From: Promethearchaeota archaeon
GTDB taxonomy: Archaea > Asgardarchaeota > Hermodarchaeia > Hermodarchaeales > Hermodarchaeaceae
Assembly: GCA_048939625.1 (NCBI GenBank)
Contig: JBHLPH010000006.1
Span: 28,476-92,475, forward strand
Direction of reading: 5' to 3'
DNA length: 64,000 nucleotides
The position numbers and the translations under genes are program-made. Of the stretch, positions 32,546 through 60,126 are shown piece by piece. The notes beneath the pieces are model-generated. The model did no database searches and was not told the origin of the DNA. It saw nothing but the letters and a program-made list of their open reading frames with translations. Each line of letters begins with the position of its first letter. Within the stretch, counting starts at the first letter, position 1.

Positions 32546-32680
32546 CCTTTGACCTCCCAAGCGCTACACTCTTTCACCTTATAGCGTAAATATGCAACCC
32601 TTCTCACCATTCAATAGGCTTTAGTGAATGACCCAGGCAAACGGAGAGAAAAACGTGTTGATGAGCCTCAAAGGTCTTAG

Positions 32681-33475: not shown

Positions 33476-33493
33476 CTACTTAGCTTTGAATGT

Positions 33494-34336: not shown

Positions 34337-34487
34337 AGCGAAGCCAACTCTACACCTACGAACCTAGCCGCGATACAAATACCTATACCATAACGCTGCA
34401 ATTTATCCAAAATGCGATCTTTAAACTTGAAATGCGTCATCTCGAAGCAGTGGCATTTGAGTGTAATTCGAGTTCAGCGTTAGATGT

Positions 34488-35867: not shown

Positions 35868-36164
35868 GCTCTACTGACCTAATTAAAAAAATAAGAGAAG
35901 AAAGGAAGACGATGCCTCCCATGACAAAAATGTTAAGCAATGCTGCTGTTAGGTCCCTGTTCTTCTTCGGCGTAGAATGAAAACAACGACGACAAGGATG
36001 ACGATAACCGCTTTTACGCCTCCTGCAATCGCTATCACTTCAAGGAGGAGAGGTGGTGGTGTCACTCTACCCTTTTCACCAAGGTGAAAGCTGCTTGGTT
36101 ATCACGAGTCACTAAGCCTTAAGTATATAAAGTCCAAACTCAGATAGGCTCCTCGGTGCTTACA

Positions 36165-37187
36165 ATGAAAGCAGCAGTTTTTTATGGAGCTGGAAAACCC
36201 CTTAAAATTGAAGAGGTGCCAACACCAGAAGTTAGACCCAATGATGTTCTAATTAAAGTAGCAGCTTGTGGTGTATGCAGGACCGACTTACATTATCTGC
36301 ACGGAACTCCGACATTCAAAAAGCCCCCGTTAATCCTTGGACATGAGGCCTCAGGGACCATAATTGAAATGGGTTCAGCTGTTGAAAAGTGGACTAAAGG
36401 AGATCGCGTTCTAATTCCGGCTGTTCTAAGCTGTGGATTTTGCGATAATTGTCGTTTAGGGCGTGAAAATATATGTCAACGACAGGAAATGGTGGGAAAT
36501 AACATTGATGGCGCCTACGCTGAATACATCCGTGTTCCTGCCAAGGATGTGTTTCGTGTTCCCCAGTCTTTATCTTTGGAAGAAACGAGCATTGTTGCCG
36601 ATGCGATTTCTACCCCATATCATGCTGTAAAGAACCGTGGAGAAGTTCGACCAGGTGATTTAGTAGCTGTGTTTGGGTGTGGTGGTGTTGGCATCAATGT
36701 GGTCCAAATCGCTGCTGCAGCAGGGGGCATCGTTTATGCTGTCGATATTGATGATAAGAAATTAAAACTGGCTGAAAAACTCGGTGCGTCTGTGACTATT
36801 AACTCGAAGGAAGAAAATCCTGTCAAACAGATTCGGTCGATAACAAAGAAGCGTGGTGTCGATGTCTCCTTTGAGGCAATTGGTATTCCTGATGTGATGA
36901 GCCAGGCACTAGCGGTTGTGAGATGGGGTGGTCGAATGGTTGTTGTTGGATACGCTGAATCCGACTGGACTGTTTCAGCTTCGCGGATTATGTTCCGAGA
37001 AGTTGAAATCCGCGGTTCTCTTGGTTGTCGTCCTGTTGATTATCCTCCCCTTCTGCAGATGGTTGAAAATGGCACCATTCAGCTTAAACCAATAATTGAT
37101 AGCAAACGGCCACTTGAAGAAATCAATGAGGCATTCAAACTTCTTGAAGAAGGAAAGGTTTTGGGTCGGATTATCGTGATTCCCTAA
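36165..37187 (+). CDS. Zn-dependent alcohol dehydrogenase (MDR family)
   Basis: CGVCRTDLHYLHG, GHEASGTI, the structural-Zn cluster CGFCDNCRLGRENIC, and GCGGVG. Confidence 0.9.
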   Translation: MKAAVFYGAGKPLKIEEVPTPEVRPNDVLIKVAACGVCRTDLHYLHGTPTFKKPPLILGHEASGTIIEMGSAVEKWTKGDRVLIPAVLSCGFCDNCRLGRENICQRQEMVGNNIDGAYAEYIRVPAKDVFRVPQSLSLEETSIVADAISTPYHAVKNRGEVRPGDLVAVFGCGGVGINVVQIAAAAGGIVYAVDIDDKKLKLAEKLGASVTINSKEENPVKQIRSITKKRGVDVSFEAIGIPDVMSQALAVVRWGGRMVVVGYAESDWTVSASRIMFREVEIRGSLGCRPVDYPPLLQMVENGTIQLKPIIDSKRPLEEINEAFKLLEEGKVLGRIIVIP

Positions 37188-37202: not shown

Positions 37203-37979
37203 CTATTTTCCTTTCCATTTAGGTTTCCGCTTCTCTAAGAACGCTTTGAGCCCCTCTGAAGCATCTTCTGTATTCTTTAATGAATCTAGGTAGATCTCAG
37301 TGGATTTTTCAACAGCTTGCATGAAGGTAAGAGGTAAGCTCTCGTAAATTGCCCGACGAACGTAGCGGAGCATAACTGGGCTATGCGCTTTGAGTTTAGT
37401 AATAAATTCATTGACTGTGGTCTCTAACTGGTCAGCAGGTACAGCGTAGTTGATGAGACCAATCTGCATAGCTTTTTCAGCTGAAATACTATCTCCAGAA
37501 TAAAGCAGTTCAAAGGTTCGTTTTTGACCAACCAAATGATGCATCGCCGCTGCGGCAATCGTGGGCACTGCACCAACTTGGATTTCCGGTTGACCAAACT
37601 TAGCTGAATCCGCTGCAAATACCACATCACAAGCGAAGGCTAGTTCACACCCTCCACCCAATGCGGATCCTTGAACTACAGTGATAACAGGTTTACCGAC
37701 ATCGATTAGGGCTTCAAAGACCTTGTTGAATGCTGCCAACGTTTTCGGTGCATGGTTCGGGAGGTGCTGTTCCACATCCACTCCGACTGAATAGAACCGA
37801 TCACCAGCTGTTTTCAACAGAATGAAATTGACATCTTCGTTGTTCTTCATCTCCTGAAGAGCCTTTTGAAGTTCTACAAGTGTTTTCTTATCAAGAATAT
37901 TCAGGGGCGGTCGATTCACCAAAATGGTCCCCACCCCATCAGACACTTCAATCCTGATATTAGAATAGCTAGAATTCAT
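37203..37979 (-). CDS. Enoyl-CoA hydratase/isomerase (crotonase)
   Basis: VNRPPLNILD, GSALGGGCELAFACD and FGQPEIQVG. ATG 37979 follows AAAGGAG. Confidence 0.9.
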   Translation of the reverse strand: MNSSYSNIRIEVSDGVGTILVNRPPLNILDKKTLVELQKALQEMKNNEDVNFILLKTAGDRFYSVGVDVEQHLPNHAPKTLAAFNKVFEALIDVGKPVITVVQGSALGGGCELAFACDVVFAADSAKFGQPEIQVGAVPTIAAAAMHHLVGQKRTFELLYSGDSISAEKAMQIGLINYAVPADQLETTVNEFITKLKAHSPVMLRYVRRAIYESLPLTFMQAVEKSTEIYLDSLKNTEDASEGLKAFLEKRKPKWKGK

Positions 37980-38083
37980 GGTGTTTCTCCTTTCACGCCT
38001 GAGTTCATCAGTGTCTGCAATATGACAAGAAAGAGACTTAAGTCTATTCAATCCCTATTAGTTAATCAGGTTGGCTGAGAACA

Positions 38084-39376
38084 ATGTTGCTTGACGAATT
38101 AGAGAAAGATGGCTTAATTATAAACTTTAACAAGGTTCCTCAAACAAAACCCAAGCATCTGCCCAAAAAAGTTCTTATCTGGGATGAAACTCTCCGAGAT
38201 GGTGAACAAACACCGGGAACAAGCCTTTTGATTGATGAAAAAATCGAAATTGCCAAGCTAATGGATGAAATGGGAATCCCTATTATCGCCGCCGGTTTTC
38301 CAGCAGTTTCAAAAGATGAGCAAGAGGTCGTTCGAAAACTTGCTGCAGAGGGCTTCAAACAAGCCAAACTTTGTGCTCCAGCTCGTGCAATCAAATCAGA
38401 TATCGATATTGCCATTCAATCTGGAGCAGAAGAAGTTCCTATCTTCATTGCATTCAGTAATCTCCACTTGAAATACAAATTAAAAAAAACCCCAGAAGAG
38501 GTTCTCAACATCGTAACAGAATCTATTGAATATGCAAAAAAACATGGAGTCATTGTCGACTTTGTTAGCGAAGACACTTCGCGTACTAGCATTGATAACA
38601 CAGTAAAGATTTTTAAAACTGCAGTAGAGGCTGGTGCTGACCGCGTTGTAATTACCGATACTGTGGGCTTCCTTAGACCTGAATCGATGAGATATTTGAT
38701 CTCCCAAATCAGGGACCGCCTCTATGAAGAGGTTAAACGGAACATTCCCCTCTCAATTCATAACCACAATGACTTTGGATTGGCTACCGCCAACACACTA
38801 GCTGCAATCGAAGAAGGCGTCACTATTCCCCACGTCTGTGTAGCAGGGTTTGGAGAACGTGCAGGCAACGCTCCTCTCGAGGAAGTCGTCATGGCATTAG
38901 AATTCCTCTATGGCGTGCAAACAGGCATCAAAACCGAAAAAATTCAAGAACTTGCTGATTTAGTTGCGCAATCGTTTGCTATCCTTCTTCCTGTTCATAA
39001 AGCAATCACTGGCGAAAACGCTTTTTCACATGAAGCTGGCATCCATGTTCATGGCATCCTCGCTCACCGGCTCACATATGAGCCTATCCCCGCTGAAACG
39101 GTTGGACGCAAAACTGATTTTTACATGGGCAAACATACTGGGAGCCAGATTGTGAAAAAGAAACTCAAAGAGAAACATATCAAAGCAACCGATGAGCAGA
39201 TTAATCAAATTGTTTCCCGAGTTAAAGAAACACACAAACTTCGAGACAAAGTCGAAATGCTTCGACAAGTACATAAAGCTGCAGAACTTCTCCGGGAAAC
39301 CCGTCTGGGTTTGAAAGAAGACGAATTCTGGGATATCGTAAAAACGATTACTGGGAAAAATCCAAGAAGCAATTAA
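38084..39376 (+). CDS. 2-isopropylmalate / homocitrate / citramalate synthase family protein, short form without a LeuA-type regulatory domain
   Basis: IWDETLRDGEQTPG and HNHNDFGLATANTLAAIEEG. Confidence 0.85.
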   Translation: MLLDELEKDGLIINFNKVPQTKPKHLPKKVLIWDETLRDGEQTPGTSLLIDEKIEIAKLMDEMGIPIIAAGFPAVSKDEQEVVRKLAAEGFKQAKLCAPARAIKSDIDIAIQSGAEEVPIFIAFSNLHLKYKLKKTPEEVLNIVTESIEYAKKHGVIVDFVSEDTSRTSIDNTVKIFKTAVEAGADRVVITDTVGFLRPESMRYLISQIRDRLYEEVKRNIPLSIHNHNDFGLATANTLAAIEEGVTIPHVCVAGFGERAGNAPLEEVVMALEFLYGVQTGIKTEKIQELADLVAQSFAILLPVHKAITGENAFSHEAGIHVHGILAHRLTYEPIPAETVGRKTDFYMGKHTGSQIVKKKLKEKHIKATDEQINQIVSRVKETHKLRDKVEMLRQVHKAAELLRETRLGLKEDEFWDIVKTITGKNPRSN

Positions 39377-39417: not shown

Positions 39418-40062
39418 GTGAATGAAATCCCATCAAAAAGAGAGAAACTCACCGGTGAGGCAGTCAAAAGCGTTGCGAATTTAATGGCAGCTGCTGCAAC
39501 AACGGCACCCAAATCAAAAGGGTTCGATGATCTTACCATTGAAATTGTATCTGGAGTAACAATCGAACAAATAGCAAAAGAAATCCAAAAAATGCGACAA
39601 GAAGATCTCACAAGCCAAACATTTTGGTTTCTGGAACCTGACGCTGAAGCCGTTTTAGAAAGTGCTGCTATCTTCCTAATTGGTATTCGGGCTAGGCGTC
39701 CTCCACTAACCCTGGATTGCCAAGCCTGTGGCTTCGAAACCTGCGCTGATTATGAAGAAGCCATTCGTCAAAACAAAACCACTGCTCTCTGTGCCTTTAA
39801 AATCCTAGATTTAGGCATCGCTCTCTCTTCTGCAATAACAGTAGCAGCCCAACACTTCATAGATAACCGGATGATGTGGTCCGTTGGGATGGCTGCACAA
39901 CGATTAGATCTAATAAAAGGCGACTTAGTCCTTGGAATTCCCTTAGCTGCAAAGGGTAGTAATCCCTTCTTTGATCGTTACCTGCGATTTTTCCTTCAAC
40001 GCGCCCGAGACCAAGGAAAAAATCTCACTCAAGTGCTTCGTGATCAAGGATTCAATGTTTAG
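39418..40062 (+). CDS. DUF2148 (ferredoxin-domain-containing) protein
   Basis: MAAAATTAPKSKGFDDL and LDCQACGFETCADY are typical of DUF2148 as I recall it. GTG start. Confidence 0.7.
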   Translation: MNEIPSKREKLTGEAVKSVANLMAAAATTAPKSKGFDDLTIEIVSGVTIEQIAKEIQKMRQEDLTSQTFWFLEPDAEAVLESAAIFLIGIRARRPPLTLDCQACGFETCADYEEAIRQNKTTALCAFKILDLGIALSSAITVAAQHFIDNRMMWSVGMAAQRLDLIKGDLVLGIPLAAKGSNPFFDRYLRFFLQRARDQGKNLTQVLRDQGFNV

Positions 40063-40394
40063 AGCGAGCGGTCCCAAGATTCATCAAAGTTAGAATTTGT
40101 AACCAGCTGCTTAAGCATTCGAGAAATTCGACGACCTAGGACCGTTGCTGTAATAACACGTGCATCATCTTCTGAATGTTTGACTAGCTCGTTCTTCTCA
40201 AGCAACGAGACATGATGGGTTATCACAGCTGGTGAATCACCACCTGCCTGAGGCTGTAAAGATTTCAAATATTGTCGTAGCGCTTTATTCGTACCAAAAT
40301 CACGATCAGATAAGAATTCTAATATTGCCACACGTGAAGGGTGAGTAATCGCTGAAAGTAAACCTCGAACCCTTTCAGAATACCAATTTGTCAT
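40059..40394 (-). CDS. ArsR-like winged-helix transcriptional regulator
   Basis: SAITHPSRVAILEFLSD...ITHHVSLLEKNELV. Confidence 0.7.
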   Translation of the reverse strand: MTNWYSERVRGLLSAITHPSRVAILEFLSDRDFGTNKALRQYLKSLQPQAGGDSPAVITHHVSLLEKNELVKHSEDDARVITATVLGRRISRMLKQLVTNSNFDESWDRSL

Positions 40395-40561: not shown

Positions 40562-41686
40562 ATGTTTGATAAATTCAAAGAGTGGTACGAAAACCGTCAC
40601 GACTATGCAAAGGCATGGAAAAAACAAACGGGCGGAAAAGTACTCGGTTATTTTTGCACTTATGTTCCAGAAGAGCTCATTATTGCAGCCGATATCCTTC
40701 CCGTTCGCATTTTAGGTAGCCACGAGGCACAAGATGTAACCGAGCCCCATATCTTTGGAATGTTTTGTCCCTTTTGCCGTGACTGTTTAGCTCAAGGTTT
40801 GAAAGGTCGATTTGATTACCTCAATGGCATCATGATTGCTCAATCGTGTCTTCATATACGCCAAACGTACAATAGCTGGGTCAAACACGTTCCACAAGAG
40901 TTCAGCTATTACATGTATATGCCCCATGGAATCCAAACCCCCCATGCCTATCCTTATTTGCGGGGTGAATTGGAAGAAGTCAAGAAAGCTTTGGAAAAAT
41001 GGATAGGACGCTCCATTTCAGACAAAGACATAGATCGGGGCATTGAGGTGATGAACAAAAATCGACAATTAATGAAACAAATCTATGAGTTTCGGAAACA
41101 GGACAATCCACCGCTGACCGGGCTCGAAGCGATGTACATGGTTGTTTCCAGTCAAATGGTCGATAAAGAGGAGCACAATCAAGCACTAGAAGCCGTGCTC
41201 AAAGAACTACCCAATCGAAAACTTGACAGAAACACAGGAACCCGCCTTATGATTATCGGTAGTGAAGACGACGATACAGAATTCGTGAAAATGGTTGAGT
41301 CGTTAGATTCTACACTGGTCGTTGATGAACACTGTACAGGCACCCGATACTTCTGGAACAAGGTTGAACCCCAAGAAGATCGATTAGCTGCCTTAGCTAT
41401 ACGATACATTGATCGACCTCCTTGTCCCAGTAAGGATTGGCCTGATCGAAGACGATTCCCACACATTTTGCAAATGGCTAAAGATTACAACGTTCAGGGA
41501 GCTCTTGTTATTCAACAGAAATTCTGTGATCCCCATGAATTAGACATGCCATCATTGAGAGCAATGCTCGAAGAAAATGGTATTCCAACCTATTTCTTAG
41601 AATTTGATGTAACCGTGCCAATTGGACAGTTTAAGACACGCGTTGAAGCGTTTCTGGAAACGTTTGCACTCCCCGATCTGTTTTAG
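40562..41686 (+). CDS. Benzoyl-CoA reductase / 2-hydroxyacyl-CoA dehydratase family subunit (BcrC/BadD/BzdN-like)
   Basis: WKKQTGGKVLGYFCTYVPEELIIAADILPVRILGS and CDPH near the C-terminus. ATG 40562 is preferred over 40454. Confidence 0.8.
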   Translation: MFDKFKEWYENRHDYAKAWKKQTGGKVLGYFCTYVPEELIIAADILPVRILGSHEAQDVTEPHIFGMFCPFCRDCLAQGLKGRFDYLNGIMIAQSCLHIRQTYNSWVKHVPQEFSYYMYMPHGIQTPHAYPYLRGELEEVKKALEKWIGRSISDKDIDRGIEVMNKNRQLMKQIYEFRKQDNPPLTGLEAMYMVVSSQMVDKEEHNQALEAVLKELPNRKLDRNTGTRLMIIGSEDDDTEFVKMVESLDSTLVVDEHCTGTRYFWNKVEPQEDRLAALAIRYIDRPPCPSKDWPDRRRFPHILQMAKDYNVQGALVIQQKFCDPHELDMPSLRAMLEENGIPTYFLEFDVTVPIGQFKTRVEAFLETFALPDLF

Positions 41687-42994
41687 GTGATGAAAATGAC
41701 TGAGAATAAATATCAAACGAAACCTTTGGATATCTGGAATGAAGGGAAAGCTCTACGACAGCAATACTATGAGAATTATGCAAAAGCTCATGAAAAAAGG
41801 GGAATCCGGTGGGCAGGTGGGGCCTGGGCTTATAGTGCGGTTCCCGCTGGTCTAGGTGACGATGTGTGGAGCCTCACTGGTGAACCATATGGGGCATCAG
41901 TTGCGTTCAACAAAGAATTCGCAGCTAAATGCCAAGAAGCGATAGAAGCGAAAGGATTTGCTCGAGATTTATGTGCGTATTTGAGAAATTATCTTGGTTC
42001 AGTTGTATTAGATAAATACGTTTTCGGTGGCAAATTTCCCAAACCAGATTTCATGTGGACAACTCATATTTGTTGTAGTCACGCGAAATGGTACCAAATC
42101 GCTAGCGACCTAGAAGGCGGTATACCCTTCTTCTGCATTGATGTAAGCACAGGATTATTTCAGGATTTCAACGAACGGCGTCGAGAGTACGTGGTTAATC
42201 AATTGCTGGATGGCATCGATTGGCTCGAAAAGACCACTGGTCGAGACTATGATGATGAAAAACTAATCCAAGCAGTCTACAACGAATGTGAGGCAACCGC
42301 TCTTTGGGCAGAGATTTGCGTATTGAACAAAACCATTCCAGCACCTCTCGATGAGAAGACAATGTATTCACTCTATGTGTTTGGAACCATTATGAAACAT
42401 CGCCCCGAAGTTGTTGCATTCTATAAAAAGCTTCGTGACGAAGTTCAAGATCGAGTCGATAACAAAATCGCAGCAGTAGGTAATGAACAACGCCGGGTCA
42501 TTACGGACACCCAACCCCCTTGGGGCTTCCTCGAGGTTTTTCGATACCTTGAATCATATGGTGTGGTGTCAGTAGGATCGCTTTACACTTTTGCATTGAT
42601 TGGGGCATGGGAAGTGAAAGACGATGGAACTTGGGGCCCCAGAACAACCCCTCAGGAGCAAGGAATTGACATTACAACCAGAAAGCAAGCACTTGAGGTT
42701 TTAGCTGATTGGACCCATTCTCGACCTGAATGGCAGCATTTCTATTCCGCCCATGAAAAAAGCGACATGATGCTCCGCATTGTACGAGAATGGAACGTTG
42801 ATGGCGTTATGTTGCATTACAATCGTGGATGTGAAGGTTTATCATTGAATATCGCAGAGAACCGCCTCGCTTTCAAAGAAGCAGGCATCCCTGTTCTTCC
42901 CTTCGAAGGTAACATGGGTGATGAACGAGAGTTCGACTTAGAACGCACCAAGAAGGCCGTGGATTCCTTCTTGGAATTATTAGGAGTCAAATAG
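41687..42994 (+). CDS. Benzoyl-CoA reductase / 2-hydroxyacyl-CoA dehydratase family subunit (BcrB/BadE/BzdO-like)
   Basis: The 435 aa is paralogous in architecture to the preceding subunit. The stop of the upstream gene abuts its start. Confidence 0.8.
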
Positions 42995-43007
42995 GAGGTA
43001 GACAAAA

Positions 43008-43784
43008 ATGATTACTGCAGGAATTGACTTTGGCGCAAAGAACGTGAAAGTCGTCATCCTCAATGATGGTAAGATAGTTGGAAAGGGAACTGCACTAACA
43101 GGCTTTGATTTGAAAATTGCAGCTAAAGATGCCTCAGAGATGGCTCTCAAGGCAGCAGGATTAAAACTCGAAGACATTGCACACATCACAGAAACCGGAA
43201 TTGGTCAAGGATCAGTTGAGTTTGCTAAGGATAGTATCAGCGAAGTCGGAGCAAATGCAAAAGCAGGCATCAAATTGTTATCATCAGCCCGGACCATTAT
43301 TGATGTAGGAGCAGAGGAAGCTCGGGCAGTCAAATGTAATGAATCCGGTGCTATGGAAGACTTTGTCGTGAATGAACGATGTGCTGCGGGAGCAGGTGCA
43401 TTCGTTGAAGCTATGTCACGTGCACTCGAAGTTGAACTAGAGAAAATAGGTCCAATGTCTTTAGAAGCCACTGAAGCAGTTCCTATGAATGCTCAATGTA
43501 CTGTTTTCGCTGAATCAGAGGTGGTATCATTAATTCATGCTAAGACACCAAAGGCGAACATCGCCCGTGCAATACACGATGCGATTGCTGAACGCGTAGT
43601 CTCGATGGTGCGAAGGTTGGGGATAACAGAAGACGTCCTCTTGGTTGGAGGATTAGCCTATGATGTTGGCTTCGTCGATTCAATGAAACGAGGATTAGGC
43701 ACGGAGGTTCACGTACCCGAGTCTCCCGAATATGTGAGTGCCTATGGCGCTGCCCTAGTGGCCCAAGAAAGAGCAAAGAAGTGA
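43008..43784 (+). CDS. BadF/BadG/BcrA/BcrD-type ATPase (electron-activating subunit 1)
   Basis: ITAGIDFGAKNVKVVI is an acetate/sugar-kinase fold phosphate-1 motif. The cluster-bridging Cys contexts are NERCAAGAGAF and NAQCTVFAESEV. Confidence 0.85.
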   Translation: MITAGIDFGAKNVKVVILNDGKIVGKGTALTGFDLKIAAKDASEMALKAAGLKLEDIAHITETGIGQGSVEFAKDSISEVGANAKAGIKLLSSARTIIDVGAEEARAVKCNESGAMEDFVVNERCAAGAGAFVEAMSRALEVELEKIGPMSLEATEAVPMNAQCTVFAESEVVSLIHAKTPKANIARAIHDAIAERVVSMVRRLGITEDVLLVGGLAYDVGFVDSMKRGLGTEVHVPESPEYVSAYGAALVAQERAKK

Positions 43785-44680
43785 TGAAAATGACAAAAAA
43801 GGAATTTTGGAGATGGCCTGAATATCGTCATACCGTTGAGGGCATCGACCCTAAGAAAGGGAAGGTGATTAGTGGAGGAGTTGATATTGGGTCTGTTAGT
43901 TCAAAGACGGTGATCATGGTTGATGGAGAAGTCTTTGCACAAAGCGTCATGCGAACCGGGTCCAGTAGTCCTGATAGTGCTGAACGGACGATGAACTGGG
44001 CTCTGGAGGATACCGGACTTACCCTCAAAGACGTTCAATATGTTGTGGGAACGGGTTATGGTCGGGTCAATATTCCCTTTGCACAAAAAGCCATAACAGA
44101 AATCGCATGCCATGGACGAGGAGCAACCTTCATGTGGGGACCCACGGTCCGAACTGTTCTGGATATGGGAGGTCAGGATTGCAAAGCCATTCGCGTTGAT
44201 GAAAAAGGAAAGGTTCAAAACTTTCTCATGAATGATAAATGCGCAGCAGGAACTGGTCGCGGCATGGAAGTATTTGCTGATTTATTATCGGTTCCCATTC
44301 AAGAAGTCGGAGATCGGTCCTTTGCGGTAAAAGAAGAACCCCAATCCGTGAGTAGCACTTGTGTAGTATTTGCCAAGTCAGAAGCTGTTGGACTGCTTCG
44401 CAGTGGATGGTCTAAAGACGAGGTTCTCGCCGCTTATTGCCAAGCCATGGCTCATCGAGTTGTTGACCTGCTAAATCGAGTAGGCGTTGAGAAAGAATTT
44501 GTCATTACTGGTGGGATTGCCAAAAATATCGGAATAGTTAAACGCGTTGAAAAAGAGCTAGGAATTCAAGCTCTCAAACCAGACCAATGGCGCGATGACC
44601 CACGATTTGACCCTATGCTAGCAGGGGCTGCAGGAGCAGCGCTATTTGCCAGAGTACTCTATGAACGCTCCCAAGGGTAA
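43781..44680 (+). CDS. BadF/BadG/BcrA/BcrD-type ATPase (electron-activating subunit 2)
   Basis: GGVDIGSVSSKTVIM, NDKCAAGTGRGME and SSTCVVFAKSEA. It overlaps the upstream stop by 4 nt. Confidence 0.85.
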   Translation: MMKMTKKEFWRWPEYRHTVEGIDPKKGKVISGGVDIGSVSSKTVIMVDGEVFAQSVMRTGSSSPDSAERTMNWALEDTGLTLKDVQYVVGTGYGRVNIPFAQKAITEIACHGRGATFMWGPTVRTVLDMGGQDCKAIRVDEKGKVQNFLMNDKCAAGTGRGMEVFADLLSVPIQEVGDRSFAVKEEPQSVSSTCVVFAKSEAVGLLRSGWSKDEVLAAYCQAMAHRVVDLLNRVGVEKEFVITGGIAKNIGIVKRVEKELGIQALKPDQWRDDPRFDPMLAGAAGAALFARVLYERSQG

Positions 44681-44695
44681 AGCTAGATCATCTAG

Positions 44696-45013
44696 GTGAA
44701 AGTGTTGATTGCAAATTACGGGTATAAGGATGGTTCCGGGGAATATTTCATAACGCTGGATACGGACAAATGTGATGGGTGCGGGAAATGCGTGGATATT
44801 TGTCCCGAATTTGTACTAGAAGTAATTCCAAACGAGTTTGATATCGAAGATGGCAACATTATGGGTGTCCGAGAGGAACATCGACACAAACTCAAATACA
44901 GTTGTGCCCCATGTAAATCAACAAGCGCAGACGTCCAACCACCTTGTGCTAATGTTTGCCCAACCCAAGCAATCACTCATTTCCTTAGTAACGCAAAAGG
45001 ACAGGTCCTCTAG
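44696..45013 (+). CDS. Ferredoxin-like 2x[4Fe-4S] protein, candidate electron donor of the reductase
   Basis: CDGCGKCVDICP plus CAPC....CANVCP. GTG start. Confidence 0.65.
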   Translation: MKVLIANYGYKDGSGEYFITLDTDKCDGCGKCVDICPEFVLEVIPNEFDIEDGNIMGVREEHRHKLKYSCAPCKSTSADVQPPCANVCPTQAITHFLSNAKGQVL

Positions 45014-45079: not shown

Positions 45080-47590
45080 ATGGTTAAACTGACAATAAAT
45101 GGAATTGAAGCGGAGGTTGATGAAGGGTCAAATATCCTTACTGCCGCGGAATCTGTGGATGTGTACATTCCTCGCTTGTGTTATCACCCGGATTTAGCAT
45201 CAGGTGTAGGAACGAAGACCACAGATAGCATCTTCCGAGGTAGTCAAGAAATCAAGCACATTGGAGGGGAGATAGAATATGAGGGGTGTGGTCTATGTGC
45301 AGTTGAAATCGAAGGACGAGATGGGATTTACCAAGCTTGTGATACCCAAGTTGAGGAAGGAATGGTTGTACTCATTGATACGCCAGAAATAATAGCTCAC
45401 CGTCAAGAGAAGTTGTCATCAATACTAGCCTCTCACCCACATGCCTGTTTAACCTGTGCACAACGAGAAGGTTGTGCTCGTGAACCATGCCCACCTAATG
45501 TGCCAGTTGATGAAAGGTGTTGTGAGAAGTTTGGACGATGTGAGCTTCAGAAAGTTGCAGAATTCGTTGGGATCAAAGGAGATACGCCTCGTTACATTCC
45601 CCAGAAACTTCCTAAACTCGAAAATGAACCTTTGATCATCCGAGATTACAATTTGTGTATAGGTTGCACTCGCTGTATCAGAGCTTGTAGTGACCTTCGT
45701 GGTGTTGATGCATTAGGGATGGTTTTTGATGGTGAGAAGTTAATCGTTGGATCGATTGCTCAAAGCCTAGGCGAATCTGGCTGCAAATTCTGTGGGGCCT
45801 GTATTGAAGTTTGTCCCACTGGTGCTCTATTAGATCAGGAAGTTATCTGGGCTAATCGAGAATTAGCCTTGTTACCCTGCGTCAATAACTGCCCATTAGA
45901 GATTGATATTCCGCGGTACCTCAGATTGGTAGTTGCAGGCGATTACACGCAAGCTACAGCTGTAATTAGAGAAAAGGCAGCTCTTCCATCCGTGTTAGCC
46001 CATGTTTGCCATCATCCTTGTGAAGAGAAATGCCGTCGAACTGACCTTAATGGTGCTTTGTGTATTTTGAGTCTCAAACGTACAGCCGTTGAGAATGATA
46101 CAGGCCAGTGGCAATCTAATTTATCGAATCTATCTTCAACAGGAAAACAGGTTGCAATTGTTGGCTCGGGACCCACTGGATTAAGCGCTGCTTTCTACCT
46201 CGCGCGATTGGGGTATGATGTCACCATCTTTGAAGAACATCCGGAGCCAGGAGGAATGCTTCGTTTTGGAATACCAACCTATCGACTCCCTCGCACGGTG
46301 TTGGATGCTGACATTCAAGTTCTAACCAAGATGGGTGTGAAAATTAAAACTAAAACTCCTATCGGTGATGACATTTCAGTTACTCAACTAAAAAACAACT
46401 TTGATGCTGTTTTACTTGCCATCGGAATGCAAGCTGGTAAAAGCTTAATGATCGATGGTCATGATCTTCTCGGAGTACATGGGGGATTGGAATTCCTGAA
46501 AAAAGTGAATTCAGGAGAAAAGCCAGATCTTGGTAAAGAAGTTATTGTAGTGGGTGGTGGAAGCGTGGCAGTTGATGTTGCGCGGACATCCATTCGATTG
46601 GGTGCTGAGAAAGTTATGCTTACCTGTCTAGAGACAGATGAGGAAATGCCTGCGCATGAATGGGAAATCTCTGAGGCCGCGGAAGAAGGTGTAGTGTTTC
46701 ATACTGCGTGGGGACCTCAGAGAATTCTTGGTGAAAAGGGCAGGGTCGTTGGTGTGGAATTGGTCAGGTGTACTTGTGTATTCGATGAGGAAGGTTGTTT
46801 CAATCCCAGTTTTGATGAAGAAACTACGCAGACTATCACAGCGGATACCGTGTTCTTTGCAATTGGTCAGTCAGTTGATTTATCGAAAATCAGTCTAGGG
46901 AGTGATTTGAAACAAACAGAAGTTGGAACCTTATGGACTAAGGAAAACAGTTGGGAAACACAAGTGAGCGGGATATTTGCTGCTGGAGATGTAGCAACAG
47001 GACCAAGCTCCGTAGTTGAAGCGATGGCAACCGGTCGTCAAGCCGCTTCACAGATTGATACATTCTTGGGCGGAAGTGGCATGCTTCATGAGGAATTAGC
47101 AGGCGATTTGAAAATCACCCACCATTTAGGACGTGATGAGGATTTCTACAAATGGAATCGAGCTGAATTACCATTACTGGCTTTAGAAAACCGAAAGTCG
47201 TCCTTTGAGGAGGTTGAGCTAGCCGTTCCGCTAGAAACTGCACAAAAAGAAGCTCTGCGCTGTCTTCAATGTGACCTACGCCTGTTATTGACTCCACCAT
47301 CTTTGCCTCCTGAAGCATGGCTTATCTTTGACGAGGCACACATTGAACAAGTGCCATCAGGGCCCGGCGTATTTATGTTAGCCGACTCAGAAAAGACGGT
47401 CCTAATTATCAAGGGTACTGAGGAACTTCAAACGGCATTGAAAGAAAAGTTAACCCACCAACCTGCTGCTAAATTCTTCCAATTTGAAGAAGACCCCATG
47501 TACACAAAGCGAGAAACCGAACTGCTCCAACAGTATGTTCAAGATCATGGTAAAATGCCAGGAGAAGATGAGCTTGATGACTTATTTTAA
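45080..47590 (+). CDS. Multidomain ferredoxin:NAD(P)H oxidoreductase fusion: [2Fe-2S] domain, NuoG/HydA-like Fe-S domains, GltD/PreT-like FAD/NAD(P) module, and an unknown ~170-aa C-terminal extension
   Basis: KLTINGIEAEVDEGSNIL, HPHACLTCAQREGC, CIGCTRCIRAC, CKFCGACIEVCPTGAL, CHHPCEEKCRR, VAIVGSGPTGLSAAFYLA and GDVATGPSSVVEAMATGRQAA. Confidence 0.8.
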   Translation: MVKLTINGIEAEVDEGSNILTAAESVDVYIPRLCYHPDLASGVGTKTTDSIFRGSQEIKHIGGEIEYEGCGLCAVEIEGRDGIYQACDTQVEEGMVVLIDTPEIIAHRQEKLSSILASHPHACLTCAQREGCAREPCPPNVPVDERCCEKFGRCELQKVAEFVGIKGDTPRYIPQKLPKLENEPLIIRDYNLCIGCTRCIRACSDLRGVDALGMVFDGEKLIVGSIAQSLGESGCKFCGACIEVCPTGALLDQEVIWANRELALLPCVNNCPLEIDIPRYLRLVVAGDYTQATAVIREKAALPSVLAHVCHHPCEEKCRRTDLNGALCILSLKRTAVENDTGQWQSNLSNLSSTGKQVAIVGSGPTGLSAAFYLARLGYDVTIFEEHPEPGGMLRFGIPTYRLPRTVLDADIQVLTKMGVKIKTKTPIGDDISVTQLKNNFDAVLLAIGMQAGKSLMIDGHDLLGVHGGLEFLKKVNSGEKPDLGKEVIVVGGGSVAVDVARTSIRLGAEKVMLTCLETDEEMPAHEWEISEAAEEGVVFHTAWGPQRILGEKGRVVGVELVRCTCVFDEEGCFNPSFDEETTQTITADTVFFAIGQSVDLSKISLGSDLKQTEVGTLWTKENSWETQVSGIFAAGDVATGPSSVVEAMATGRQAASQIDTFLGGSGMLHEELAGDLKITHHLGRDEDFYKWNRAELPLLALENRKSSFEEVELAVPLETAQKEALRCLQCDLRLLLTPPSLPPEAWLIFDEAHIEQVPSGPGVFMLADSEKTVLIIKGTEELQTALKEKLTHQPAAKFFQFEEDPMYTKRETELLQQYVQDHGKMPGEDELDDLF

Positions 47591-47610: not shown

Positions 47611-47838
47611 GTGCTTTCAATGATGAATCTATCAGATAAAGAGCTAGAACAACAAGGGTGGGAGAAACGGTTCAGTGTCGAAGAACATCGTGCTGAAGAA
47701 TACAAAGCGCATTATGAAGAATTAGGCTTCGAAGTTCTGATCTTACCAACTGCGGAGGTTGAGACAGACAGAATCTGTAATGAGTGTATTCAGTCTGAAA
47801 CATGTTCCCTTGTAACAATCTTCACAAGACCCAAATGA
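47611..47838 (+). CDS. Small hypothetical protein (75 aa) with a C..C...C motif
   Basis: The ORF lies 20 nt after the oxidoreductase stop and has a GTG start. No family is recognised. Confidence 0.4.
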   Translation: MLSMMNLSDKELEQQGWEKRFSVEEHRAEEYKAHYEELGFEVLILPTAEVETDRICNECIQSETCSLVTIFTRPK

Positions 47839-47857: not shown

Positions 47858-48730
47858 CTAAGAGTTTAGTTTAAGTAATTTGATAGCGTTCTTGCCAAGA
47901 ATTTGTGTCTTTGCTCTTTCACCAATATCCAGGTTTCTAATTGCTTCGATATTTTCAGCAATACTAAGAATTCCAGGCCAGTCGCTACCAAAAAGCACCT
48001 TGTCAGCAATTATTTCAAGTTGTGGAAAGTATCGTAGTAAATTCTTTGGTGGCAAACCAGAAATTTCAAGATAAACATTAGGATGGAGTCGTGTAACAAA
48101 AAACGCCATATCAAACCAAGGACCTCTCCCACCGTGTACAACAATCACAGGCAGTTTAGGAAAGTCTGAAGCTATATCATCTAAGAACAGTGGATTTCCA
48201 TACTTCAACCGAGCACCAGGGAAAACACTGGTCCCAGTGTGAAACATAACAGGAATGCCGAGAGTCTCCGCTGTTTCATATAACATTCTCAATTTCTCCC
48301 ATCCTTGGGAGGTTGCATATGCGTTTGGATAGAAATGCTGGTATGTTGGATAAAGCTTCAATCCGCGCATCCCTAGAGTTCCAACAGCGTTTTCAAGGGT
48401 TTTAGTAGGGTTGGGATCTTCGGTGGGATCAACAGAACAGAAAGGGATGAGACGGTCCAAATGATTTTCACAAAACTCAGCAACGAATTCATTGGTTACC
48501 ACGCCAGTAACTTCGGGTGAAAGTTCTGCTAATACTACTGCCCAATCTATTCCGCATTCATCGAGCATACTTATGATATTCTCTGGTGTCATGATTTCAT
48601 CTTGAATTTCATAAAGCCCCGGATTTAATTCCTTGAAAAGCGCATGAATTGCCGGATTCCAGTGATCCCGTTTTCCAACGTGTAAATGAAAATCAACCAC
48701 TTTCATCTTTTTGACGGAGTTGGAGGTCAT
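47858..48730 (-). CDS. Amidohydrolase-2 family TIM-barrel metal hydrolase/decarboxylase (COG2159 type)
   Basis: VVDFHLHVG at the N-terminus, then VMFHTG, IVVHGG and FGSDWP. Confidence 0.8.
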   Translation of the reverse strand: MTSNSVKKMKVVDFHLHVGKRDHWNPAIHALFKELNPGLYEIQDEIMTPENIISMLDECGIDWAVVLAELSPEVTGVVTNEFVAEFCENHLDRLIPFCSVDPTEDPNPTKTLENAVGTLGMRGLKLYPTYQHFYPNAYATSQGWEKLRMLYETAETLGIPVMFHTGTSVFPGARLKYGNPLFLDDIASDFPKLPVIVVHGGRGPWFDMAFFVTRLHPNVYLEISGLPPKNLLRYFPQLEIIADKVLFGSDWPGILSIAENIEAIRNLDIGERAKTQILGKNAIKLLKLNS

Positions 48731-48880
48731 CTATCATCATCCATCTTAAATTCGAAGTGATATAACTGTTGATATGAGTTCTACTTAGAATAGTGGTTGT
48801 GGCTAAAAGGTTTTATTTTGGTAAACTCTCTCATAGTCACTTCCATTATACTTTTGCCCATTATGATGGTGTAATTAGCA

Positions 48881-50788
48881 ATGAGTAATTCTCCCATGAC
48901 CGGTAAACCTGGTGAAACGGTTATTGGATTAGGCAATGACGCTATTGCTCGCGGAGCCCTCGAAGCAGGTGTCCAATTTGCCACAGCGTATCCTGGTACA
49001 CCCTCTTCAGAGATACTAGGAAATTTAGCCACGATTTCCAAAGAATCTGGTATCTATGTAGAATGGAGTGTCAATGAGAAAGTCGCTTTTGAAGCCGCAA
49101 CCGCAGCAGCTTGGACTGGTCTCCGTGCCATGGCATCTATGAAAGTCAATGGGCTTTTTGTTATCCTCGACTCACTTGTTAATATCGCCTATACTGGTCA
49201 TGGACCGGGTGGACTGATTCTGGTAGTAGCTGATGATCCCTTTGCTCACAGCTCCACAACTGAGGGAGATGCGCGACCTCTAGGCTTCTATTCAGATATC
49301 GTTGTACTCGAACCCTCCACGCATCAAGAAGCCAAAGATATCATTCCTTACGCCTTTGAATTATCCGAAAAACAAGGCGTCATTGTCATGGTTCGAGAAA
49401 CAACAAGACTAGCCCATAGTCGTGCTCCTTTCAAACTAGGAAAAATCAATCGGACTCCAAGAATTGCCAAATTTGATTATAATCTTCCATTACATAATCT
49501 CCCTCGCCCCCATTTACGACATAAAGAGCTACATACACAATTAGAAAAAATTCGTGACGAATTCGAGCAGTCAACCTGGAATCAGTATGATGGACCAAGT
49601 AAACCCTCCTTATTGATAATTACCTCCGGTGTTGCTTGGAAATACGTGCGAGAAGCTGTAGAAATTCTTCAATTACAGGACGTTGGCATTCTTCGAATTG
49701 CCACAATTTCTCCATTACCGAGAAGAATGATTCTTGAAAAATTAAAAACATCCACTAATGTGCTCTTTTTCGAAGAAGTTAATCCATATTTAGAACTACA
49801 AATAACCGGTCTCGCCTCAGAACTGCCTTCGAAGCGCATTCCTAACTTTTTCGGTAAGTTTTCTGGTCATATTCCAAGTTATGGTGAAGTTGATATCAAT
49901 CTAGCAATCAAATCAATAGCCGCCATTAAGAAACTCAAGTATACTCCTGTTCAGGAAGAGTACATCAACATCGCAACAGATGCGGCTAGTATCCTTCCGA
50001 GACGGATACTCACCTTCTGCCCTGGCTGTCCACATCGACCTGCCTACTATAGTATTTACAGAGCTATCAAACGCAACAAAGGAAAAGGTATTGTCACAGG
50101 AGATATCGGGTGCTATTCATTAGGCGTGTTTTACCATAACATAATGCGTAATCAGCATTCAATGGGTGCCGGTGTAGGAATTGCTAGCGGTCTTGGTAAG
50201 TTAGAACAATTTGGATTAAAGGACCCGGTCATTACAGTGATAGGTGATTCAACTTTCTACCACGCCTGTCTCCCTGCGTTAGTCAACATCATCTATAATC
50301 AATCAAAGGCCATCGTATGTGTGTTAGATAATAATGCTACGGCAATGACGGGATTTCAACCACATCCTGGTACAGGCTTGACCGCAACAGGTGATATGAC
50401 TTCAACGGTTCCTATAGAGGAAGTGCTTCAGGGCATTGGGTTTCAATCGATTTCCATAGTTGATCCCTTCAACATCAAGGAATCAATTGATACGGTTTAC
50501 AATGCATTAATATCAACAGAAAGTCAAGCTCTTGTTTTTCGGAGAGAGTGTGCATTAATTACCAATCGACGAAGGCGACAAAAACAAGAGCCTACGCCGC
50601 AGTTTGTAGTTGATACAGATAAGTGCTTAGGAGAAAAATGTAAGACCTGTTCAGTGGAATTTAATTGTCCTGCTTGCGTCTGGGACAACGACTCTAACAA
50701 AGCCCAAATCGAGATTACCCTCTGTAATGGGTGTGGTGTGTGTGTCGACATATGTCCACACAATGCCATCCATGAATATAGGGAGTGA
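48881..50788 (+). CDS. iorA: Indolepyruvate:ferredoxin oxidoreductase alpha subunit
   Basis: GNDAIARGALEAGVQFATAYPGTPSSEI, the TPP motif GDIGCY...GDSTFYH, and a C-terminal CNGCGVCVDICP. Confidence 0.9.
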   Translation: MSNSPMTGKPGETVIGLGNDAIARGALEAGVQFATAYPGTPSSEILGNLATISKESGIYVEWSVNEKVAFEAATAAAWTGLRAMASMKVNGLFVILDSLVNIAYTGHGPGGLILVVADDPFAHSSTTEGDARPLGFYSDIVVLEPSTHQEAKDIIPYAFELSEKQGVIVMVRETTRLAHSRAPFKLGKINRTPRIAKFDYNLPLHNLPRPHLRHKELHTQLEKIRDEFEQSTWNQYDGPSKPSLLIITSGVAWKYVREAVEILQLQDVGILRIATISPLPRRMILEKLKTSTNVLFFEEVNPYLELQITGLASELPSKRIPNFFGKFSGHIPSYGEVDINLAIKSIAAIKKLKYTPVQEEYINIATDAASILPRRILTFCPGCPHRPAYYSIYRAIKRNKGKGIVTGDIGCYSLGVFYHNIMRNQHSMGAGVGIASGLGKLEQFGLKDPVITVIGDSTFYHACLPALVNIIYNQSKAIVCVLDNNATAMTGFQPHPGTGLTATGDMTSTVPIEEVLQGIGFQSISIVDPFNIKESIDTVYNALISTESQALVFRRECALITNRRRRQKQEPTPQFVVDTDKCLGEKCKTCSVEFNCPACVWDNDSNKAQIEITLCNGCGVCVDICPHNAIHEYRE

Positions 50789-51399
50789 ATGGTTTGAATT
50801 TTGATGATCCGTTCAACATTGTGATTGCAGGTGTGGGAGGTCAAGGAAACGTTCTCTCATCCCGTCTTATTGCAGATGCTGCAATTACTAAAGGATATTT
50901 TGCCACAATTGGCGAGACCTATGGAGCGGCTCAGCGAGGTGGGTCAGTGATGTCTCATATTCGGATAAGTAAAGAGGATATTGGACCCCTTATTCCACAT
51001 CATTCTGCTCACCTGCTCCTTGGCTTTGAACCCATCGAAGCACTACGCGTTGGTGCCCGCTACCTTAATCCATCAAGCACCGCTATCGTGAATATGCACC
51101 CTGTATATCCCGTTGAAGTACTGACAGGTCAACTTGAGTATCCCCCTATTAATGAAGTTAAAAAGCGGCTCAATCAGCTTTGTTCACAACTATTTACCCT
51201 CGATGCAGTAGATTTAGCTCGAAAGGCTGGAGATCCATTAGTAATGAATACTGTGATGGTCGGGGCATTTGCAGGAGCTAACCTTGCACCTGTTAATGCG
51301 TCTCCACTCGAGAAAGAAATCGCGAAGCTTCGACGACTGAAAGAGGTTAATTTGAAGGCTTTCAAGCTTGGCGTTGATGCTATTAAGAAAAAGGCGTAA
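50785..51399 (+). CDS. iorB: Indolepyruvate:ferredoxin oxidoreductase beta subunit
   Basis: FNIVIAGVGGQGNVLSSRLIA. The GTG start overlaps the iorA stop. Confidence 0.85.
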   Translation: MNGLNFDDPFNIVIAGVGGQGNVLSSRLIADAAITKGYFATIGETYGAAQRGGSVMSHIRISKEDIGPLIPHHSAHLLLGFEPIEALRVGARYLNPSSTAIVNMHPVYPVEVLTGQLEYPPINEVKKRLNQLCSQLFTLDAVDLARKAGDPLVMNTVMVGAFAGANLAPVNASPLEKEIAKLRRLKEVNLKAFKLGVDAIKKKA

Positions 51400-56705: not shown

Positions 56706-56862
56706 TTCACTTTGAAGAATAGATAAGATAGATTCTTCGAAGTGTCATTCCTTTCCCTCCATTTTTGTAATAGAATATTCTATGTTCATCGAAAATTGTA
56801 GTATCAAGTAGAAACTTCAAATAAGAGAAACTGATACTTACTCACCAACTTTGGTGGTTAAG

Positions 56863-57798
56863 ATGGCTAAACCCAAATACAAAGAAATTCTTTATGAGAA
56901 GAAAGATTGGGTCGCTACTATCACAATCAACCGTGCGGACAAATACAATGCGTATACACTTCTGACACTCAACGAAATGTGTGATGCCCTTCATACAGCC
57001 TCATGGGATGACGAAGTTGGTGTAATTGTCGTTACTGGTGCAGGCAAGAAAGCTTTCTGCACCGGAGGGGACGTTAAAGAATATGCAACCAAGTACACTA
57101 AGAAACCTCGTGACTTTTGGAAATGGTGTGAAATTTTCGAACGTGCCTTACATCTGTTACGACATTGTGGAAAACCAGTGATAGCTCGATTAAACGGTAT
57201 CGTTGCTGGTGGTGGAAATGAAATCCAAATGGCATGCGACCTAGCAATTGCTGCAGACCATGTCGAAATATTTCAAGTCGGAACGAGGGTCGGAAGCGTA
57301 GCTTCCGGAGGCGCTACTCAGTGGCTGCCAATCATTATCGGCGACCGACGGGCCCGGGAAATGCTATTCACCTGTGATCGAATTAGTGCTGAAAAAGCTA
57401 AAGATTGGGGGCTCGTCAACGAAGTTGTTCCCTATGATAAACTCGATGACACCATTGCAGAATGGTCAAAGAAAATCCTTGAAAAATTCCCCGAATGTCT
57501 ACGCTTTACCAAAGCGCAAGTGAACTTCTGGAAAGACTTAGTCTGGTCACTCACATGGCCAAGTGTACGAGACTGGCTCAGCGTCCACTTCAGTTCCCAA
57601 GAACCCCATGAAGGAATGTGGGCTTTCGTCGAGAAACGACCTCCAGCATACATGAAATTACGACAGGAAGCCGCAGATGGGAAATCACCTGAATTCAAAT
57701 GGGGACCATGGGAGAAGACCTGTCCAAGCTGCAACACAACATACTTACCTAGTGAGTTTACTCACTGCGGAAAATGTGGCGCAAAGCTAGACAAGTAA
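56863..57798 (+). CDS. Crotonase-superfamily protein of MenB/BadI-like type with a C-terminal zinc-ribbon extension
   Basis: ITINRADKYNAYT..VIVVTGAGKKAFCTGGDVKEY..GGGNEIQMACDLAIA, and a C-terminal CPSCNTTY...CGKCGAKL. Confidence 0.8.
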   Translation: MAKPKYKEILYEKKDWVATITINRADKYNAYTLLTLNEMCDALHTASWDDEVGVIVVTGAGKKAFCTGGDVKEYATKYTKKPRDFWKWCEIFERALHLLRHCGKPVIARLNGIVAGGGNEIQMACDLAIAADHVEIFQVGTRVGSVASGGATQWLPIIIGDRRAREMLFTCDRISAEKAKDWGLVNEVVPYDKLDDTIAEWSKKILEKFPECLRFTKAQVNFWKDLVWSLTWPSVRDWLSVHFSSQEPHEGMWAFVEKRPPAYMKLRQEAADGKSPEFKWGPWEKTCPSCNTTYLPSEFTHCGKCGAKLDK

Positions 57799-60107: not shown

Positions 60108-60126
60108 CCAATAAGAATCTCAGGAA

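Follow-up and report, generated by a model that had tools for sequence, protein, structure and literature searches.

The stretch of DNA described here (the window) comprises 64,000 nucleotides (nt) of contig JBHLPH010000006.1 from assembly GCA_048939625.1 of a Promethearchaeota archaeon. It contains six consecutive genes on the + strand that correspond to bzdN, bzdO, bzdP, bzdQ, a ferredoxin gene in the bzdM position, and a gene encoding a BzdV-like Fe-S flavoprotein. We interpret this region as encoding a benzoyl-CoA reductase (BCR) of the Bzd type (class I, ATP-dependent), together with the module that supplies its electrons, in an Asgard archaeon of the Hermodarchaeota type, and assign this interpretation a probability of roughly 85%. 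BCR catalyzes the key dearomatizing step of anaerobic aromatic degradation. An initial annotation of the window, which was made from the sequence alone, had also proposed a four-subunit Bzd-type class I reductase with a dedicated ferredoxin.

Family assignments were made by Pfam and NCBIfam profile searches of the window proteins, with the NCBIfam equivalog cutoffs used as thresholds. bzdN (40562..41686, +) encodes a protein of 374 amino acids (aa; PF06050 HGD-D, E = 4e-87) that is predicted to be the electron-transfer subunit of the catalytic dimer and to carry an [8Fe-9S] double-cubane cluster. bzdO (41687..42994, +; 435 aa; PF06050, E = 5e-48) is expected to encode the active-site subunit, with a predicted aqua-[4Fe-4S] cluster and a benzoyl-CoA channel. 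The two ATPases of the predicted electron-activating heterodimer are encoded by bzdP (43008..43784, +; 258 aa; PF01869 BcrAD_BadFG, E = 1e-42), the first ASKHA-fold ATPase, and bzdQ (43781..44680, +; 299 aa; PF01869, E = 1e-56), the second, which has canonical motifs. The ferredoxin (44696..45013, +; 105 aa; Fer4 Pfam families) is predicted to bind 2x[4Fe-4S] and to be the electron donor to BzdPQ, and the BzdV-like protein (45080..47590, +; 836 aa) is a candidate NAD(P)H-linked ferredoxin-regenerating enzyme.

The first five genes had been listed in the initial annotation, and all five open reading frames (ORFs) were found co-directional on the + strand at the same coordinates. They are tightly packed, and neighboring genes lie 0-15 nt apart or overlap by 4 nt: bzdP starts 13 nt past bzdO, bzdQ overlaps bzdP by 4 nt, and the ferredoxin gene starts 15 nt past bzdQ. 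The BzdV-like gene follows 66 nt further on. For the first gene, an ORF starting at 40454 is the longest, yet the BzdN homology begins at the ATG at 40562, which was the start chosen previously. Homologues of BzdO are 432 aa long, so that the true start of bzdO is probably the ATG at 41696, and the start of bzdQ is ambiguous within 9 nt (43781, 43784 or 43790). The order N-O-P-Q-ferredoxin had been likened to bzdNOPQM of Azoarcus/Aromatoleum and is indeed the same (PMC5658619); the operon of Aromatoleum sp. CIB is written bzdNOPQMSTUVWXYZA (PMC5658619).

All six genes, bzdN through the BzdV-like gene, are under purifying selection, as crude dN/dS values of 0.01-0.06 per gene were obtained in comparison with two related metagenome-assembled genomes (MAGs). 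Contigs from independent sediment metagenomes match 36-48 kb at 100% identity, and their depth is even; this rules out an assembly artefact as the source of the arrangement. Together with the dN/dS values, these contigs indicate that the ORFs are real genes and not chance ORFs. In metagenome run X2, one low-depth contig joins 42744 to 43480 and omits 735 bases over the bzdO/bzdP junction. The shorter side of this contig is just 21 nt and all other contigs are colinear; the deletion is probably assembly noise.

Both catalytic subunits pass the curated cutoffs of their Bzd families. BzdN matches TIGR03190 benz_CoA_bzdN with 516.8 bits (cutoff 453.8; residues 1-374 on model positions 3-377), and BzdO matches TIGR03191 benz_CoA_bzdO with 616.7 bits (cutoff 448.6). 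The closest solved structure for each is PDB 8S02 of Aromatoleum sp. CIB, in which chain B aligns with BzdN (499 bits, 55.1% identity, full length) and chain A with BzdO (597 bits, 59.8% identity, full length). Fuchs et al. reported the structures of BzdNO from Aromatoleum (Azoarcus) sp. CIB in 2025 (PDB 8S02/8S1T/8S2R; PMC11971306), and the defining residues were taken from that paper and mapped by alignment to 8S02. This alignment-based check of the cluster ligands and active site of the archaeal subunits is new here. All six ligands of the BzdN [8Fe-9S] cluster are kept (Cys36/73/100/263/293/327, which are C32/69/96/258/288/322 in the window), as are Arg53/267/290 and His330 around the distal sub-cluster, and likewise Ser239 and Gln324. 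In BzdO the aqua-[4Fe-4S] ligands Cys95/128/380 and the catalytic residues Glu65 and His131 are kept, and these are invariant in 122/122 homologues.

The residues of BzdO that line the substrate site bear on which CoA ester is reduced. The initial annotation had stated that the substrate is unreadable from the sequence; this holds in part, but the substrate is now partly readable because the 2025 BzdNO crystal structure lists the benzoyl-ring and thioester contacts and all of them are conserved (PMC11971306). The ring contacts Trp46, Tyr97, Leu302 and Leu383 and the thioester contacts Tyr298 and Gln274 are identical to those in 8S02, and Glu381 and Gly382 are also kept. The sole first-shell difference is Ser44, which is Gly in the window and in 120/122 homologues. 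Gln124 is Thr in the window, a minority state that is found in 20/122 homologues. The replacement of Ser44 by Gly was considered as a lineage-specific substrate determinant and was ruled out, since Gly is the common state and Ser is the exception.

An enzyme of the same type could nevertheless act on a different aryl-CoA, such as 3-hydroxy-, methyl- or halo-benzoyl-CoA, or an aryl-CoA derived from aromatic amino acids via the IorAB, AOR and Amidohydro_2 proteins described below. Class I BCRs with altered specificity do exist, as in the 3-methylbenzoyl-CoA reductase MbdONQP (PDB 9g87/9gai), and the Ser44 and Gln124 positions, which are counted as second-shell differences in this comparison, do distinguish the window protein from that of Aromatoleum. 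IorAB and Amidohydro_2 are encoded in the synteny block of the Hermod-type loci, AOR is encoded in the window, and the candidate downstream enzymes score under the Dch, Had and Oah equivalog cutoffs. We regard this alternative as improbable, since every listed contact to the benzoyl ring and the thioester in 8S02 is identical and Gly44 is the family-wide state and not a lineage-specific one. The catalytic subunits of the methyl-specific enzyme are also very distant from those of the window (MbdO 40.7 bits; MbdN 116.5 bits, 26% identity). Benzoyl-CoA is the predicted physiological substrate of the reductase.

MbdONQP, which is from Thauera chlorobenzoica, and the Thauera-type BcrABCD belong to the same BCR/HAD radical family as the Bzd enzymes and have the same two-module architecture. 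The BCR-type and 3-methylbenzoyl-CoA reductase (MBR)-type enzymes are permanent heterotetramers, whereas the modules of the BZD-type are predicted to associate transiently (PMC11971306). A Thauera-type BcrABCD/BadDEFG enzyme was rejected for the window because the scores are far under the cutoffs of the models TIGR02259-02263: 43 versus 487 bits for BcrB (TIGR02260), 141 versus 421 for BcrC (TIGR02263), 156 versus 578 for BcrA, and 127 versus 313 for BcrD. In addition, the ATPases are 258 and 299 aa long versus the ~430 aa A subunit that is expected of a Thauera-type BCR.

The placement of BzdN was examined with a neighbor-joining tree of N subunits (Kimura distances, 374 columns, 200 bootstraps), which is distance-based and covers the N subunit alone. 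It includes the window, Aromatoleum BzdN and the BzdN orthologues of 29 labelled loci, with near-full-length sequences of HadC, MbdN and DCCP taken from PDB alignments as outgroups. The Bzd clade, including the window and Aromatoleum BzdN, was recovered in 200/200 bootstraps, and the Hermod-type clade within the tree was also recovered in 200/200. The window BzdN is 26-29% identical to the three outgroups (HadC 29%, DCCP 26.5%, MbdN 26%). A phylogeny had been proposed in the initial annotation as a check on its reading, and the N subunit groups with the Bzd-type proteins and outside the dehydratase HadC, MbdN and DCCP. With the N, O and Q subunits over their Bzd equivalog cutoffs and a distinct P subunit, this result bears out the earlier assignment to a four-subunit Bzd-type class I reductase with a ferredoxin.

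The same tree is informative about a 2-hydroxyacyl-CoA dehydratase (HAD) of the HgdAB/HadBC/FldBC type, which with its activator ATPases would serve amino-acid fermentation. Such enzymes have PF06050 and PF01869 in common with the window proteins, HadB and HadC are the second-best PDB matches, and IorAB is encoded nearby. HadBC and its activator HadI (PDB 3O3M, 4EHT) share with the Bzd proteins the PF06050/PF01869 folds and the three-Cys [4Fe-4S] site of the alpha/O subunit. However, HadBC is only 24-29% identical to the window subunits, with HadC at 29% compared to 55% for Aromatoleum BzdN, and the HadB (NF052455) and HadC (NF052456) models reach 135 bits versus a cutoff of 750 and 188 bits versus a cutoff of 700. 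The six double-cubane cysteines of the N subunit are not reported for the HAD structure, and His131, which is present in the window, is Ala at the equivalent position in HadB. HAD relies on a single activator, a homodimer, and its catalysis recycles one electron (PMC11971306), whereas two different ATPase genes are present here. A dehydratase is thus scarcely credible for this locus.

An ATP-dependent reductase of the DCCP type, which would act on small molecules and not on CoA esters, shares the six-Cys [8Fe-9S] site with BzdN, and BzdN matches the double-cubane reductase model NF040772 with 194 bits. This score is well under the cutoff of 350, DCCP serves as an outgroup in the tree, and the window encodes a separate O subunit with the complete set of benzoyl-CoA-contact residues; the odds of a DCCP-type enzyme are correspondingly minute. 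By these comparisons, the dehydratase and DCCP readings are effectively refuted, and the Bzd-type reductase is retained.

The initial annotation had placed weight on two distinct ATPase genes, and BzdP and BzdQ are indeed only 29% identical over 241 aa. BzdQ matches TIGR03192 benz_CoA_bzdQ with 403 bits (cutoff 380.2), and its top PDB match is MbdQ (9gai_D, 209.6 bits). BzdP matches the generic activase model TIGR00241 with 194.7 bits (cutoff 125.4) and the bzdQ model with 144 bits versus 380; no BzdP-specific model was matched in the NCBIfam scan. The top PDB match of BzdP is HadI (165 bits), and BzdP orthologues with 50-95% identity lie between bzdO and bzdQ in 70 of the loci that were fetched for the analysis of synteny (L001-L080, of which L001-L008 are the Hermod-type loci). 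The cluster-bridging Cys contexts noted earlier can be read in the translated proteins: the 258-aa protein has NERCAAGAG and NAQCTVF, and the 299-aa protein has NDKCAAGTG and SSTCVVF. They align to the cluster-binding cysteines of HadI, HgdC and MbdQ. Both contexts of BzdP are invariant in 120/120 homologues.

The two ATPases differ in their nucleotide-binding motifs. The window BzdP has DFGAKNVK and DVGAEEAR, whereas the window BzdQ has DIGSVSSK and DMGGQDCK. BzdP orthologues have the divergent nucleotide-binding signature GA(K/R)xxK and D[VI]GAEE[GA]R, while BzdQ, HadI, HgdC and MbdQ have GSxxxK and DxGGQDxK at these positions. For BzdP, GAEE is found in 120/120 database homologues and in 65/70 loci, the deepest branches among them; for BzdQ, GGQD is found in 63/63 loci. 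The corresponding subunit of the Thauera chlorobenzoica enzyme, MbdP, is near-canonical, with GSTYIK and GGQTMK versus the GAKNVK and GAEEAR of BzdP. The divergent signature suggests that the ATPase heterodimer may be functionally asymmetric. It is conceivable, if doubtful, that Bzd-type ATPases are asymmetric in that BzdP binds ATP without hydrolyzing it, or does not bind it, which would result in less ATP being consumed per benzoyl-CoA. The cost would then fall below the 2 ATP per 2 electrons of the Thauera-type BCR, and this could account for the spread of an 'expensive' class I enzyme in energy-limited anaerobes (Asgard, Bathyarchaeia, Anaerolineae, Aminicenantes). Because the phosphate-binding signature of BzdP is divergent, the Thauera-type stoichiometry of 2 ATP per 2 electrons cannot simply be assumed here.

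The ferredoxin has eight cysteines in the arrangement CxxCxxCxxxCP ... CxxCx11CxxxCP, and all eight are kept in at least 90% of 40 aligned orthologues; the pattern of the family is CxxCxxCxxxC ... CxxCx9-17CxxxC. Its N-terminal segments NYGYKDGSGEYFI and HRxKxKYSC are conserved. The description of this ferredoxin as 'dedicated' in the initial annotation is supported because an orthologue directly follows bzdQ in 60/80 loci from many phyla. The BzdV-like protein contains a 2Fe-2S Fer2_4 domain, a NuoG/HoxU-like 4Fe-4S region, a GltD/NfnB-like FAD/NAD(P)H module and DUF7508, and matches NfnB-like modules in the PDB with 365-397 bits. In Hermod-type loci and in those of Bathyarchaeia, Thermoplasmata and other Asgard archaea, it is encoded after the ferredoxin, with 46-83% identity. 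BzdV is described in the literature as a putative NADPH:ferredoxin oxidoreductase, and the equivalent Hermodarchaeota gene was named BzdV (PMC8163825). Past the BzdV-like gene is a 75-aa ORF (47611-47838) with a CxxC...C motif and no Pfam match, which is kept in Hermod-type loci (76-79%) and in one Hodarchaeota locus (42%).

Based on homology to the Aromatoleum enzyme, the following mechanism is proposed. The ferredoxin would receive its electrons from the BzdV-like NAD(P)H-linked flavoprotein, from 2-oxoacid:ferredoxin oxidoreductases (for example IorAB, which is encoded nearby), or from both, and would deliver single electrons to the [4Fe-4S] cluster predicted to bridge BzdP and BzdQ. ATP hydrolysis would lower the potential of this bridging cluster and drive the electron to the [8Fe-9S] double cubane of BzdN, from which it would reach the [4Fe-4S] cluster of BzdO that has water as a ligand. 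There, a hydrogen atom of the cluster-bound water would be added to C4 of benzoyl-CoA, and a second electron, with a proton delivered via Glu66 (Glu65 in Aromatoleum), would yield cyclohexa-1,5-diene-1-carbonyl-CoA. This product would enter a modified beta-oxidation carried out by the Dch-like hydratase, the Had-like dehydrogenase, the BadI/Oah-like hydrolase, thiolases and a 3-hydroxyacyl-CoA dehydrogenase.

Candidates for these lower-pathway enzymes are encoded on both sides of the operon. The Had-like gene (36156..37187, +) has TIGR03201 dearomat_had as its best match, with 274.4 bits and under the cutoff of 338.65; the gene keeps its position in L002-L006 (88-92% identity) and is also found close to bzd genes in L010, L067 and L071. 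Beside it, in the Dch/BzdW position, is a gene for a crotonase-fold enoyl-CoA hydratase (37203..38051, -; PF00378, E = 1e-51) that is a candidate dienoyl-CoA hydratase. This protein matches TIGR03189 dienoyl_CoA_hyt with 152.9 bits versus a cutoff of 292.5, generic enoyl-CoA hydratase models score higher, and the gene is syntenic beside the Had-like gene in the Hermod-type loci. A BadI/MenB/Oah-family crotonase (56851..57798, +), ~12 kb from the operon, is a candidate ring-opening hydrolase. It reaches 201.9 versus 467.6 bits for TIGR03210 badI, 207 versus 380 for MenB, and 174.4 versus 464 for TIGR03200 Oah, the last over the N-terminal half of the model, and its orthologues (44-63%) lie near bzd operons in L012, L015, L067 and L069. 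The window also encodes thiolases, a 3-hydroxyacyl-CoA dehydrogenase and an acyl-CoA dehydrogenase. The pathway assignment beyond the reductase is positional because no downstream candidate reaches its equivalog cutoff.

Divergent from bzdN is a gene for an ArsR/SmtB-like small winged-helix protein (40059..40394, -), which is a candidate regulator by virtue of its position. The only NCBIfam matches of this protein are weak (NF033788, E = 3.5e-4, under its cutoff), and it is kept at the same position in L001-L008 with 73-81% identity. Between the Dch-like and ArsR-like genes are an HMGL-like gene of the isopropylmalate/homocitrate-synthase family (38084-39376), which is under all equivalog cutoffs, and a gene for a DUF2148 Fe-S protein (39418-40062); this placement is found only in the Hermod-type loci L001-L008. 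Beyond the BzdV-like gene, at 47858-51399, are an Amidohydro_2-family protein and the indolepyruvate:ferredoxin oxidoreductase IorAB, which are syntenic in L003-L006; IorA scores 593 bits, under a cutoff of 651. With aromatic amino acids as the starting material, these proteins may provide an aryl-acyl-CoA and also reduced ferredoxin. Further downstream (58833-62411) are a divergent PadH-like FAD/NAD oxidoreductase (58833-60107), a small 2x[4Fe-4S] protein (60127-60582, -) and a tungsten-type aldehyde:ferredoxin oxidoreductase (AOR; 60579-62411, -). The AOR gene and its Fe-S partner were considered as a BamBC-like class II BCR and rejected, as the AOR matches 1AOR of P. furiosus with 395 bits over its full length versus 220 bits over the N-terminal two thirds for BamB (4Z3W).

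The block is colinear over 36.0-51.4 kb with five Hermod-type MAGs (L002-L006) in the order Had-like, enoyl-CoA hydratase, HMGL-like, DUF2148, ArsR-like, bzdNOPQ, ferredoxin, BzdV-like, 75-aa ORF, Amidohydro_2 and IorAB. At the aa level, the nearest relatives are Hermodarchaeota MAGs with 90-96% identity. The closest BzdO sequences (92-96% identical) are from MAGs labelled Hermodarchaeota, Promethearchaeota and, once, Odinarchaeota, followed by Bathyarchaeia (72-75%) and Anaerolineae (69-70%). The nucleotide identity between the window and L001-L008 is just 79-86% over 15 kb, which suggests that the window represents a different species from the Hermod-type MAGs that were fetched. The module of bzdNOPQ and ferredoxin, in some cases with the BzdV-like gene, is kept in Asgard archaea, Bathyarchaeia, Thermoplasmata and Methanomassiliicoccales and, among bacteria, in Anaerolineae and many further phyla. 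L001 (JBHLQC010000053.1) is labelled Candidatus Odinarchaeota yet contains the Hermod-type block, with BzdN/O/P/Q 93-96% identical to those of the window, and its taxonomic label or binning looks inconsistent. The bzd operons of L067, L071 and L080, which are from a second Promethearchaeota MAG and Hodarchaeota, are 65-69% identical to that of the window and no nearer than those of many bacteria; the nearest lineages beyond the Hermod-type clade are Bathyarchaeia and Anaerolineae. The distribution of the operon fits repeated horizontal transfer, which has been suggested before in the literature.

Several points weigh against a functional BCR at this locus. The Had-, Dch- and Oah/BadI-like genes are all under the curated equivalog cutoffs, though they are repeatedly linked to bzd operons, and no benzoate-CoA ligase or other AMP-forming CoA ligase is encoded within the 64-kb window. 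The phosphate-binding signature of BzdP is divergent, as discussed above. Transcription has weak support from a wetland metatranscriptome, in which short contigs are 90-95% similar to bzdN, bzdO, bzdP, bzdQ and the ferredoxin gene; these fragments are from a relative and not from this genome, and they may include DNA carry-over. As this is one metatranscriptome with short contigs of that similarity, expression of this genome cannot be claimed. It is from homology that we infer the activity of the enzymes of this archaeal clade and their use of benzoyl-CoA as physiological substrate, and also the path of the electrons and the identities of the downstream enzymes. An ATP-consuming reductase would also be energetically awkward in an archaeon that is presumed to be fermentative or strictly anaerobic, a difficulty that has been discussed for Chloroflexi.

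Aromatoleum BzdNOPQ-BzdM has the same four subunit types in the same order as the window, and the direct sequence comparison between the two covers BzdN and BzdO. The host of the former is a denitrifying betaproteobacterium, whereas the host of the latter is an Asgard archaeon. The BzdV-like protein is encoded directly past the ferredoxin in the window, whereas bzdV lies past bzdSTU in Aromatoleum, and the regulator is BzdR in Aromatoleum as compared to the candidate small ArsR-like protein in the window.

Ferroglobus placidus had been offered as an archaeal precedent in the initial annotation; the closest precedent is instead the same cluster in Hermodarchaeota (PMC8163825). Zhang et al. (ISME J 2021; PMC8163825) described the BcrABCD subunits of Hermodarchaeota on one contig along with BzdV, a ferredoxin, Dch, Had and regulators, and noted an affinity to Anaerolineales sequences. 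The subunits of this bcr/bzd cluster are 88-98% identical at the aa level to those of the window, and the block is identical in L002-L006. That annotation uses BcrABCD names and predates the BzdNO structure (PMC8163825). The GC content of the window is ~44%, like that of the published Hermodarchaeota bins, which are at 43-45% with one at 48.7% (PMC8163825). Bzd-type BCRs of Asgard archaea had also been reported before in Lokiarchaeota, Thorarchaeota and Heimdallarchaeota (Farag et al., bioRxiv 10.1101/763623). Because the same cluster was published for Hermodarchaeota by Zhang et al., the finding is already known, and the interpretation given here is a correct reading of a described system.

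The gene content of the window is archaeal and includes Lrp/LysM-type regulators, an RPA-type single-strand-binding protein, DUF35-thiolase pairs and an F420-type LLM oxidoreductase. The GC fraction is 0.46-0.48 at 26-36 kb versus 0.42-0.45 elsewhere in the window. The region at ~23300-34400 encodes three ~320-aa paralogues with an N-terminal Lrp/AsnC HTH (23319-24272, 28318-29301, 31583-32560) as well as three ORFs of 283-289 aa that have no family match (27344-28195, 29393-30262, 30632-31486). At 12744-17769, genes for a dihydroorotate/dihydropyrimidine-dehydrogenase-like protein with Fer4, a class III aminotransferase, a carbon-nitrogen hydrolase and an amidohydrolase lie together in what looks like a cluster for the reductive catabolism of pyrimidines (or of related N-heterocycles). 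The tRNA and Rfam scans of the window gave no matches.

A BCR in Asgard archaea bears on carbon cycling in sediments and on how energy-limited anaerobes afford an ATP-consuming enzyme, a case that was argued in 2019-2021, on genomic evidence of the same sort, for Lokiarchaeota and Hermodarchaeota. The window adds one more species-level representative in which the cluster is intact and syntenic. The kept cluster ligands and active-site residues strengthen the published prediction and make these proteins reasonable targets for expression, and the signature of BzdP merits biochemical attention.

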